In this document: positions 20,243 to 20,569 of the stretch, one piece after another
Layout: every line of letters starts with the position of its first letter
Numbering within the stretch: the stretch's first letter is position 1
Source of the DNA: an uncultured Muribaculaceae bacterium
Lineage (GTDB): Bacteria > Bacillota_I > Bacilli_A > RF39 > UBA660
Direction of reading: 5' to 3'
NCBI GenBank assembly: GCA_964430695.1
Contig: CAYSFO010000002.1
Span: forward strand, 1 to 60,281
DNA: 60,281 bases
Made by a program: the position numbers and the translations under genes
The notes under the pieces: model-generated
Databases searched by the model: none
The model's input: only the letters and a program-made list of their open reading frames with translations
What the model was told of the DNA's origin: nothing

Positions 20243-20271
20243 TTGAATTTATATTTTATTTATGATAATTT
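20243..20271 (+). promoter_or_regulatory. promoter of peptide gene A
   Basis: TTGAAT (20243-20248), 17 nt, TGaTAATTT extended -10 (20263-20271). Predicted start at G20278. Confidence 0.5.
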
Positions 20272-20334
20272 TTAATCGCGAGATGCAATGTATTGGTGTT
20301 AGCCGTTCCAAATTATTCAAGGAGGAATGGTCTA

Positions 20335-20403
20335 ATGAGTAAAAAAGATTTTTTAATCACTATCTTACTTCTGATAATTATTCTACTTATCATTTTTGGT
20401 TAG
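20335..20403 (+). CDS. 22-aa hydrophobic peptide, candidate type I toxin (copy A)
   Basis: MSKKDFLITILLLIIILLIIFG. SD AAGGAGG lies 9 nt upstream. Conserved paralogue at 46284-46352 with synonymous codon differences. Confidence 0.6.
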   Translation: MSKKDFLITILLLIIILLIIFG

Positions 20404-20417
20404 TTTAAATCTCTTTC

Positions 20418-20430
20418 GGGGGTTTTGGAA
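20418..20430 (+). repeat. GGGGGTTTTGGAA motif, copy 1 of 3
   Basis: Exact 13-mer also at 46367-46379 and 57170-57182, always on the peptide-gene strand. Confidence 0.8.
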
Positions 20431-20504
20431 TAAAAAATAGCACCATCCTTTATATGGAAGGTGCTTGCAACACAACGGCAAGCACTTATATAAGTGTCTC
20501 GCTT
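20430..20504 (-). ncRNA. candidate antitoxin sRNA A (~75 nt), antisense to the 3' UTR of peptide gene A
   Basis: Predicted start A20504 (AAGCGAGACAC...). Intrinsic terminator GCACCUUCC-N7-GGAUGGUGC (20464-20440) plus UAUUUUUUAUU. Confidence 0.5.
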
Positions 20505-20510
20505 AAGTAA

Positions 20511-20539
20511 ATAATAATGTAATTTTATATAAAAGTAAA
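20511..20539 (-). promoter_or_regulatory. promoter of sRNA A
   Basis: Minus strand TTTACT (20539-20534), 17 nt, TATTAT (20516-20511). Confidence 0.5.
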
Positions 20540-20569
20540 GAACTTTTTTCAAACAGTTCTTATTTTTTA
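20538..20569. terminator. bidirectional terminator (GT2 gene on minus strand, peptide mRNA on plus strand)
   Basis: AAGAACT-N10-AGTTCTT with a T-run on the plus strand and a U-rich tract on the minus strand. Overlaps the stop codon of the gene at 20560. Confidence 0.5.

Follow-up and report, generated by a model that had tools for sequence, protein, structure and literature searches.

The window analyzed here, a 60,281-nucleotide stretch from an uncultured bacterium (contig CAYSFO010000002.1, assembly GCA_964430695.1), contains a short locus, termed module A, in which a predicted mRNA for a 22-amino-acid (aa) hydrophobic peptide converges with a predicted antisense small RNA (sRNA). Comparisons with metagenomic relatives suggest that module A and its paralogue in the window, copy B, probably belong to a large family, not described before, of toxin-antitoxin (TA) modules of type I in uncultured gut Bacilli, and that they probably constitute bona fide toxin/antitoxin pairs. 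We have high confidence, at the least, that both genes, the one for the peptide and the one for the antisense RNA, are real. The peptide is presumed to be a membrane-acting toxin, and we infer both its toxicity and its neutralization by the sRNA.

An earlier note on this DNA had proposed that an unannotated type I TA-like module resides at this position, formed by a peptide mRNA and a convergent sRNA that overlaps its 3' end. This proposal is borne out in that each structural part, namely the open reading frame (ORF), the antisense promoter and terminator, and a helix that implies transcriptional read-through, is now backed by comparative data, which make the case stronger than the note had put it. 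When positions 19900-20800 were read, the sense promoter, the transcription start, the Shine-Dalgarno (SD) sequence, the ORF, the leader pairing and the antisense promoter were all located where the note had placed them.

A conserved gene for a short hydrophobic peptide

The SD sequence of module A (AAGGAGG) is followed, 9 nt downstream, by the ATG at position 20335. The encoded peptide, MSKKDFLITILLLIIILLIIFG, has a KK(D) N-terminus and then a hydrophobic stretch of ~17 residues. Related genes were sought in a metagenome collection with a degenerate pattern consisting of GAGG, any 6-11 nt, ATG, seven N-terminal codons, and eleven codons of the form NTN. The pattern was found in at least 120 metagenome loci. 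All module counts given below refer to the matches listed, which comprise 125 pattern matches and 107 distinct full modules. Recurrence in the 107 distinct full modules places the arrangement seen in module A far beyond chance. Nearly all of the pattern matches (120 of 125) are ORFs of 21-30 codons that begin with MxKKD[F/L]LI and continue into a hydrophobic helix.

Most of the 107 full modules encode peptides of 27 aa (63 modules) or 22 aa (17 modules), and others encode peptides of 29 aa (8 modules), 24 aa (7) or 26 aa (7). One member of the 22-aa class, MSKKDLLIAVLLIIIILLIIFG, is 82% identical to the module A peptide. Gut metagenomes, among them rumen and human ones, are the source of the modules, whose gene neighborhood is not fixed. 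Several contigs carry multiple copies and tandem arrays: three copies are present in L141, and two are present in each of L147, L161 and L197.

Codons 22-27 are unconstrained by the search pattern and so offer a separate view of selection on the peptide. Entropy in these codons is 0.30 at codon position 2, versus 0.72 and 0.78 at positions 1 and 3, respectively. Thus, T at codon position 2 is under selection outside the pattern, which indicates selection for hydrophobic residues. The same loci were also searched by nhmmer with a profile of the 3' untranslated region (UTR), which is independent of the ORF. Among the 98 hits, 91 carry the pattern ORF, two more carry intact but diverged ORFs, and a few are decayed. 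Judged by its conservation, the peptide ORF is a conserved short coding gene. Its product is predicted to have the hallmarks of a type I toxin, being a hydrophobic, membrane-targeted peptide of fewer than 60 aa that is encoded by a short stand-alone mRNA.

The family has so far gone unannotated. Ten family peptides, including that of module A, are all missing from a collection of 15 billion proteins. No toxin family of Pfam or NCBIfam, with Fst_toxin and Hok included, matched seven of the peptides at E ≤ 10 or 42 of them at E ≤ 1, and no Protein Data Bank entry matched the family peptides. Rfam searches of the window and of 13 related loci detected no family that matches the modules at the gathering score, and at E ≤ 10 only chance-level hits were obtained for positions 20000-20650, with no match to Fst/RNAII, RatA or SR4. 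These Pfam, NCBIfam and Rfam results uphold the suspicion in the earlier note that the peptide resembles no known type I toxin family. A string search of the literature for KKDFLI and KKDLLI returned no paper that contains either.

A conserved predicted antisense gene

The predicted sRNA of module A has a sigma-A-type promoter to itself and is encoded wholly within the 3' UTR of the peptide mRNA; it ends short of the peptide stop codon and has no complementarity to the ribosome-binding site (RBS). The 80-nt antisense RNA folds with a free energy of -24.8 kcal/mol (z = -3.9), and the terminator hairpin alone with -14.0 kcal/mol (z = -3.8). The terminator had been described previously as a textbook intrinsic terminator. 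The hairpin at 20440-20464 and its minus-strand T-run are indeed present, but the stem is not a plain one because it contains an internal U-U mismatch, which also explains why a generic terminator scan misses it.

Promoter-like hexamers occur in the AT-rich module A region at the frequency expected by chance (10 found versus 10.0 expected), and a generic promoter scan listed the antisense promoter and not the sense promoter. Thus, the module A promoters are credible only because they are conserved. An extended -10 element is present on the antisense strand 60-190 nt after the stop codon in 91 of the 107 modules, versus 29 modules for the sense strand of the same region and 22.8 for shuffled sequences. 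In an alignment of 64 antisense regions (A4), the consensus is TTGAnA-17-TGnTATTAT; the TTG, the TG and the TA..T are each at least 90% conserved, and the spacer varies. At the position of the sense promoter, 65-74 nt upstream of the ATG, 55 of the 107 family members have an extended -10 element.

A central hairpin follows the stop codon in all 107 modules, with a mean free energy of -12.5 kcal/mol, and seven of its nine stem pairs exhibit double-sided changes. At least 6 of the 10 bases upstream of the hairpin are A in 87 modules, and no module has T at 6 or more of the 10 downstream bases. The central hairpin can therefore terminate only the antisense RNA. An antisense promoter and an antisense-only terminator are thus shown, at the level of conservation, to be retained across the family. 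An sRNA gene that overlaps the toxin gene, as in type I TA systems generally, is accordingly a prediction from sequence conservation.

A long-range helix closes the peptide mRNA

Complementarity between the 5' end of the mRNA and its 3' UTR had been recognized earlier as a 6-nt match between GCGAGA and TCTCGC. This match is part of a much longer helix. The predicted minimum free energy fold of sense RNA 20278-20510 (z = -5.1) pairs positions 20278-20307 (arm L) with positions 20474-20502 (arm R) to form ~25 base pairs. The arm duplex of module A has a free energy of -34.8 kcal/mol, versus -19.5 ± 3.2 kcal/mol for shuffles of the downstream region (z = -4.8), and the corresponding value for copy B is z = -4.5. 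Throughout the family, a helix of 20-30 base pairs joins the extreme 5' end of the mRNA to a 3' arm located inside the antisense overlap.

The helix was also recovered de novo. With RNAalifold, the first ~22 nt of an alignment of 68 major-class modules (A2) pair with an arm located ~45-60 nt after the stop codon. An explicit pairing test was then applied to the whole structure of 31 pairs, which consists of the long-range helices and the central hairpin. Alignment cells are paired in 95.9% of cases, versus 91.7% for shuffled alignments (0 of 500) and 31-43% when slid. Double-sided changes are observed in 16 pairs versus 7.4 expected (0 of 500), and in 101 cells versus 17.2 expected. Pairing reaches 99.9% and 99.1% in the two main long-range helices.

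Between subfamilies, the arms show no relation in sequence, yet they remain complementary within each module, as illustrated by A and B (GCGAGAUGC...), L142 (GAAGUACCUAGGUUGGGCG...) and L236 (GCAUGUUCAUUAUGGGCGUCAGC...). Cognate arm duplexes have a mean free energy of -34.7 kcal/mol versus -22.1 kcal/mol for non-cognate duplexes, and for 15 of 28 representatives no arm is a better partner than the cognate one. In the two main helices, ~124 cells are G-U or U-G on the sense strand, versus 6 cells that are A-C or C-A, and the sense duplex is the more stable one in 83 of the 107 modules. Because the sense strand alone tolerates G-U pairs, the constraint acts on a single sense RNA that includes both arms. 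Transcription of the mRNA must therefore continue past the central hairpin into the antisense gene, and the overlap between the two RNAs is expected to span the entire sRNA. Directly after arm R, major-class modules have CCUUUUUUAUUUUA, a U-tract, and it is a speculative possibility that the closing helix and U-tract might themselves terminate the toxin mRNA.

The strand asymmetry bears on the possibility that no functional gene pair exists at all, with the minus-strand hairpin being simply the terminator of the upstream glycan genes, the inverted repeat a DNA element resembling a miniature inverted-repeat transposable element, and the ORF and promoters products of chance in AT-rich DNA. Chance frequencies of promoter-like hexamers fit this explanation, as does the fact that copy B behaves as an inserted element. 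Moreover, the hairpins of copy B and of a decayed remnant (C, described below) lie directly downstream of a minus-strand gene and probably terminate that gene. However, the G-U pairs confined to the sense strand exclude a constraint that acts on DNA or on both strands alike. In the antisense promoter, the critical bases are near-invariant around a variable spacer, ORF length and the NTN codon pattern are conserved, an SD is always present, and the anti-SD hairpins covary. We therefore regard the absence of a functional pair as very improbable.

Ribosome-binding site sequestration and predicted action of the sRNA

In the 68 modules of A2, the SD is mostly paired, with a probability of being unpaired of ~0.18. 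Local hairpins at the SD covary in this class; examples are CUUCUU/GAAGGG and CCUCUAAUC/GAUUGGAGG, among others. RNAalifold also proposed a pairing of the SD with CUUCC within the ORF, which was not adopted since it has essentially no double-sided covariation. Predicted folds and covariation thus suggest that translation of the peptide is restrained by mRNA structure, through sequestration of the SD, 5'-3' closure, or both, as is expected for a type I toxin.

The effect of sRNA binding was simulated by blocking the overlap region during folding. In the 68 modules, the probability that the 5' end is unpaired increases from 0.013 to 0.46; the same value increases from 0.003 to 0.38 in module A and from 0.001 to 0.22 in copy B. 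The block also decreases the probability that the AUG is unpaired in A (0.44 to 0.18) and that the SD is unpaired in B (0.17 to 0.03). Remodeling of the SD in the manner of SR4 was rejected as a conserved mechanism for the major class (0.18 versus 0.21, not significant).

These simulations are compatible with the following model. The closed, SD-sequestered mRNA would be stable and poorly translated. The sRNA would pair perfectly with the 3' 75-110 nt of the mRNA, including arm R, and would thereby displace arm L and free the 5' end. The long sRNA-mRNA duplex would be a substrate for RNase III, the free 5' end would be exposed to 5'-end-dependent nucleases, and the toxin mRNA would decay. Decay is predicted because a freed 5' end is combined with a long perfect duplex, which follows the logic of RatA and SR4 (PMC4147584). 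A further effect is possible in A and B, where the distal part of arm L (GCCGUUCC or GCCACCU), once released, may complete the anti-SD hairpin and thereby reduce translation. Loss of the sRNA would allow the peptide to be made and to damage the membrane.

A more far-reaching proposal, which we consider possible but put forward only tentatively, is that these modules may represent the main type I TA superfamily of uncultured gut Bacilli with small genomes, and perhaps one with an undescribed control logic. The RBS would be left untouched, and the antitoxin would invade the 3' arm of the helix that circularizes the toxin mRNA and uncap its 5' end for decay. In the commonest subfamily, the helix and U-tract could double as an intrinsic terminator formed by the whole transcript. 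Such a superfamily would be invisible to annotation because its peptides have only 21-30 aa.

Additional copies, insertion and decay

A blastn search of the window with the module A intergenic region detected copy B as a match at 46168-46483 (75% identity over 325 nt). The ORFs of A and B have the same length, and three of seven differing codons are synonymous. A compensatory change from C-G to U-A is present in the terminator stem, and the U-U mismatch is kept. The SD hairpin is likewise compensated (CCGUUCC:GGAAUGG in A, AGGUGGU paired with GCCACCU in B), and changes within arm L (A-U to G-U, and U-G to C-G) preserve pairing. Promoters occupy aligned positions, with TTGTTT-17-TG-c-TATCTT for the sense and TTTACA-17-TATTAT for the antisense promoter of B. 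Thus, the differences between A and B fit the functions proposed for the ORF, the stem, the anti-SD, the arms and the antisense promoter.

The earlier note had counted three copies. A and B are true copies, and the others are a decayed remnant and a different module. Remnant C (~48008-48100) has only a truncated N-terminal ORF (MKKNEFVSLLSLLF...), a degenerate 13-mer and a hairpin with the same U-U mismatch; it has neither arms nor an antisense promoter. Its hairpin lies ~20 nt after the stop codon (48117) of a 484-aa gene and now probably serves as the terminator of that gene. The module at 57200 was rejected as a true copy in that no significant 5'-3' helix is formed, and it represents a related but different peptide/antisense module. 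The conserved 13-mer GGGGGTTTTGGAA occurs exactly only three times in the window, in the 3' UTRs of A and B and in the 5' UTR of the 57200 module, and was not found in 80 genome loci of relatives.

These 80 syntenic loci were collected by a protein search with the product of the WecA-like gene near module A. Their sources are metagenome-assembled genomes (MAGs) from mouse, rabbit, human and chicken that belong to uncultured gut Bacilli or "Tenericutes", and the closest have WecA-like proteins with 76-85% identity. No nucleotide homologue of A or B was detected in them by blastn. Copy B fills a 440-nt spacer between a 149-aa gene and a gene for a glycosyltransferase of family GT4 (window positions 46029-46469). 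In two syntenic loci of close relatives, L003 (11046-11471/11468) and L008 (11040-11521), the genes that flank B overlap or are 65 nt apart. Therefore, B is an insertion within an operon, and it places a terminator inside this glycan operon.

A decayed copy lies in L011 (1930-2160, minus strand), which is among the closest relatives found (81% identity in the WecA-like protein). A deletion has taken away the greater part of arm L along with the SD, the start codon and the N-terminal codons, but has left intact the antisense promoter and its terminator as well as arm R and the 5' hairpin. This copy looks like an orphan antitoxin. Loss of translation signals with retention of the antisense gene is what would be predicted for a harmful peptide and a protective RNA.

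Insertion and decay of this kind help to judge the most serious alternative, namely that the gene pair is real but is not a TA system, and that a small membrane protein that does no harm, such as one that modulates a larger membrane complex, is simply tuned by a cis-antisense RNA. In its favor, selection acts on hydrophobicity and not on a specific sequence, which would also suit generic membrane anchors. Copies reside among cell-wall glycan genes, and none was found on the phage or plasmid records searched. In contrast, the modules are multi-copy and tandem without a fixed gene neighborhood, B interrupts an operon and is absent in the relatives L003 and L008, and the L011 copy has lost its translation signals but kept the antisense gene. 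Furthermore, the predicted repression has three layers (the SD hairpin, the 5'-3' closure and the antisense RNA), which is typical where a product must stay off. On balance, a harmless protein seems unlikely. Multi-copy and tandem arrays, the insertion polymorphism and a toxin-dead copy with an intact antisense gene offer only indirect hints of toxicity and selfishness.

Related modules in other loci and collections

Searches of the 80 WecA-like loci revealed more distant modules. A diverged family member, MKKKNLLIFALVIIIFLLILFLFVVLV, was detected in L023 by nhmmer (E = 7e-4), and a small-ORF screen uncovered analogous modules in L039, L023, L054 and L034 (Table 1) that encode peptides of other families (MKRENKFLKVIIFLLILIIIILIFKI, MKFKFEINFKSKLIIILLLITIIVIISK and MKLREFFLYIMIFVLLILVFILALR). 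The modules of L039, L023 and L054 have inward promoters (the antisense promoter being TTTACA-17-TATAAT), inverted repeats of 27-35 nt that link the 5' leader to the 3' region, and a central terminator that is bidirectional. The tandem modules of L034 also have the inverted repeat; their terminator favors the antisense strand, and an antisense promoter was seen only after the second copy, with no clear one between the two copies.

Exact 19-22-mers from the most conserved non-coding blocks were absent from viral, genome and metagenome collections, and exact look-ups of the neighboring proteins returned no record. Apparently, the species is absent from the collections, and the non-coding sequence evolves too fast for 19-22-mer matches.

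A loose version of the peptide pattern produced 38 matches on viral contigs, none of which is a short hydrophobic ORF. This search also brought to light recurrent ORFs of 14-19 codons with an SD (MYKKNFLISVKTNN and MLKKNFLIFVKTNNLRKRC) on IMG/VR contigs (L081, L089-L091, L095, L096, L100, L117 and others), which are unrelated to the TA-like family.

Two other observations concern the WecA-like loci. Conserved ORFs of ~40 aa with a strong SD and the consensus MKKxLSxLLGAxGLxxAGxATTGCWxxxxDEPxMPKSMLNK are located ~2.3-3.3 kb from the WecA-like gene on the minus strand. They are present in L028, L029, L049, L051, L060, L062, L063, L071-L073, L076 and L078, and none was detected in the window by the same screen. 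These ORFs resemble precursors of AgrD-type cyclic autoinducer peptides. In addition, an ornate large extremophilic (OLE) RNA with a score of 374 bits resides just downstream of the WecA-like gene in L039 (11158-11753, plus strand), a gut Bacilli MAG, and Rfam gave no OLE hit in the window.

Table 1. Positions of predicted features of module A, copy B and related modules
Feature	Position	Strand	Description
Module A, sense promoter	20243-20271	+	-35 TTGAAT 20243-20248, 17-nt spacer, extended -10 TG-a-TAATTT 20263-20271
Module A, predicted mRNA start	20278	+	G; GCGAGA begins here
Module A, arm L	20278-20307	+	5'-terminal arm of long-range helix, GCGAGAUGCAAUGUAUUGGUGUUAGCCGUU
Module A, SD hairpin	20303-20330	+	anti-SD CCGUUCC 20303-20309 pairs with GGAAUGG 20324-20330, overlapping SD AAGGAGG 20319-20325
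Module A, peptide ORF	20335-20403	+	22 aa, MSKKDFLITILLLIIILLIIFG; Lys-rich N-terminus, then one hydrophobic helix
Module A, 13-mer	20418-20430	+	GGGGGTTTTGGAA; between stop codon and hairpin
Module A, predicted antisense sRNA (putative antitoxin)	20504-20429	-	~76 nt; 5' stem-loop is complement of arm R, then intrinsic terminator
Module A, sRNA terminator	20464-20429	-	hairpin 20464-20440, U-run 20439-20429
Module A, arm R	20474-20502	+	3' arm of long-range helix, inside sRNA-complementary region; TCTCGC 20497-20502
Module A, antisense promoter	20539-20511	-	-35 TTTACT 20539-20534, 17-nt spacer, -10 TATTAT 20516-20511
Copy B, whole module	46187-46482	+	
Copy B, sense promoter	46187-46215	+	
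Copy B, arm L	46222-46250	+	
Copy B, anti-SD	46246-46252	+	
Copy B, SD	46271-46277	+	
Copy B, peptide ORF	46284-46352	+	MKKKDFLITALLVIIILLIIFD
Copy B, 13-mer	46367-46379	+	
Copy B, hairpin	46388-46412		
Copy B, arm R	46419-46445	+	
Copy B, antisense promoter	46482-46454	-	-10 46454-46459, -35 46477-46482
Copy B, predicted sRNA	~46447 to 46377	-	
57200 module, ORF	57200-57286	+	MNKEYVLILVYVLLVIIIMLIVVILRLV; SD GGAGGAGG; module within window 57070-57420
57200 module, antisense promoter	~57420-57392	-	TTGTAA-16-TATAAT, near-consensus, convergent
57200 module, antisense terminator	~57340-57288	-	
L039, analogous modules	600-1240		two tandem copies
L023, analogous module	270-560		
L054, analogous module	6560-6180	-	
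L034, analogous modules	12300-11780	-	two tandem copies

The genes around module A are related to cell-wall glycans and encode PgfS-like and AglJ-like glycosyltransferases of family GT2, a WecA-like protein and a GT4 glycosyltransferase.

Weight of the evidence and implications

Several points weigh against the assignment as a TA system. Support for it is comparative or thermodynamic throughout, and the covariation counts take no account of phylogeny. Because the metagenome set was gathered by an ORF-based pattern, ORF integrity is partly an effect of ascertainment, which the 3'-UTR profile search on the same loci removes only partly. The sense promoter of A is weak by hexamer match. On the 3' side of the sense mRNA of A, the sole downstream hairpin (20540-20559) is weak (-4.7 kcal/mol, z = -1.5), and it was not accepted as a sense terminator. 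The SR4-like occlusion of the SD predicted for A and B is not conserved in the major class. Finally, many type I systems reside on phages or plasmids, whereas BLAST searches of plasmid and phage records and an exact-mer scan of viral sequences found no copy.

The modules are of interest for several reasons. They illustrate with unusual clarity, and with the support of covariation, an mRNA that is closed by a 5'-3' helix and has the 3' arm of this helix within an antisense overlap, and opening of this helix by the antitoxin, followed by decay, is a specific mechanism that is directly testable. The family occurs in lineages without cultured models. Modules mark insertion polymorphisms inside operons, and decayed copies leave behind terminators that are reused by host genes. 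Peptide/sRNA pairs of this type could also serve as counter-selection or RNA-switch parts in Gram-positive and gut bacteria.

Comparison with known type I systems

T1TAdb lists 24 families of type I TA systems (PMC8594479). According to reviews, the two RNAs overlap at their 3' ends in all Gram-positive type I systems (PMC4147584). By the comparisons made here, the locus has this Gram-positive 3'-overlap layout but fails the sequence tests for every known family. The convergent sRNA over the 3' end of the mRNA corresponds to the TxpA/RatA and BsrG/SR4 types in layout only, because the peptides are not homologous.

The bsrG/SR4 system of the Bacillus subtilis SPbeta prophage is similar in its convergent genes and in an sRNA that covers only the 3' part of the toxin mRNA. 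In bsrG, as here, a short stem contains the RBS; its antitoxin favors decay and, by binding the 3' end, changes the structure of the distant 5' region (PMC4147584). Blocking the overlap in A and B is likewise predicted to lengthen the anti-SD pairing, but this is not conserved across the new family. Pfam, NCBIfam and Rfam reveal no relation between the two systems. BsrG has 38 aa, whereas the new peptides have 22-29 aa. The overlap in the new family also holds the 3' arm of a covarying 5'-3' closing helix, and we know of no description of such a helix within the overlap for bsrG.

In txpA/RatA of the B. subtilis skin element and in sprG/SprF, the 3' ends overlap by ~75 nt without complementarity to the RBS or ORF, and decay depends on RNase III (PMC4147584). 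The predicted overlap of module A (~76 nt, outside the ORF) is similar. T1TAdb states that the antisense RNA overlaps the ORF in the txpA/RatA family (PMC8594479). In contrast, the predicted antisense RNA of module A ends short of the stop codon, and TxpA, with 59 aa, is unrelated in sequence. To our knowledge, no long-range 5'-3' helix has been reported for txpA/RatA.

In the fst/RNA I-RNA II system (par of pAD1) and in SprA1/SprA1as, the two RNAs have a hairpin in common, a 5' stem-loop sequesters the SD, and a stabilizing helix involves the extreme 5' end of the toxin mRNA. Our modules, also of Gram-positive type, share the SD-sequestering 5' hairpin, the extreme-5'-end helix and a hairpin common to both RNAs. 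Convergent transcripts, an element of the par layout (PMC8594479), are shared as well. The new modules might therefore be regarded as diverged representatives of a Gram-positive type I family that is already known, either Fst/RNAI-RNAII (par) or another. The earlier note had compared the layout with fst/RNAII, txpA/RatA and bsrG/SR4. The 3' overlap on which this comparison was based is sound, but the geometry is opposite to that of par in that the repeats are inverted, a feature that had gone unseen. The two par RNAs have 5' ends that are complementary owing to direct repeats, and they interact outside the overlap (PMC8594479). The sRNA 5' end of the new family resembles, rather than complements, the 5' end of the mRNA, and a par-like mechanism in which these ends pair was rejected on this ground. 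The central hairpin terminates only the antisense RNA and is not bidirectional. Neither Fst_toxin, the Pfam profile for Fst/Ldr-type peptides, nor any other toxin family of Pfam and NCBIfam recognizes the peptides, and no Rfam antitoxin family matches even at E ≤ 10. Moreover, the charged N-terminus and hydrophobic C-terminus of the new peptides are the reverse of the polarity of Fst. Descent from par or another known Gram-positive family thus has very little probability.

In hok/sok and aapA1/IsoA1, a long-distance 5'-3' interaction closes the full-length toxin mRNA and renders it inert (PMC5416894, PMC8594479). The principle of 5'-3' closure is the only feature in common with the new family. 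The antisense RNAs of hok/sok and aapA1/IsoA1 pair with the 5' part of the mRNA, and it is 3' trimming that leads to activation. The antisense gene of our modules is instead located at the 3' end and covers the 3' arm of the closing helix. The organisms are of Gram-positive type, and the peptides have no sequence relation to Hok or AapA, including no Hok match in Pfam. The best reading of these comparisons is that the new family combines the Gram-positive 3'-overlap layout with an mRNA-closing helix, the 3' arm of which would be the target of the antitoxin.

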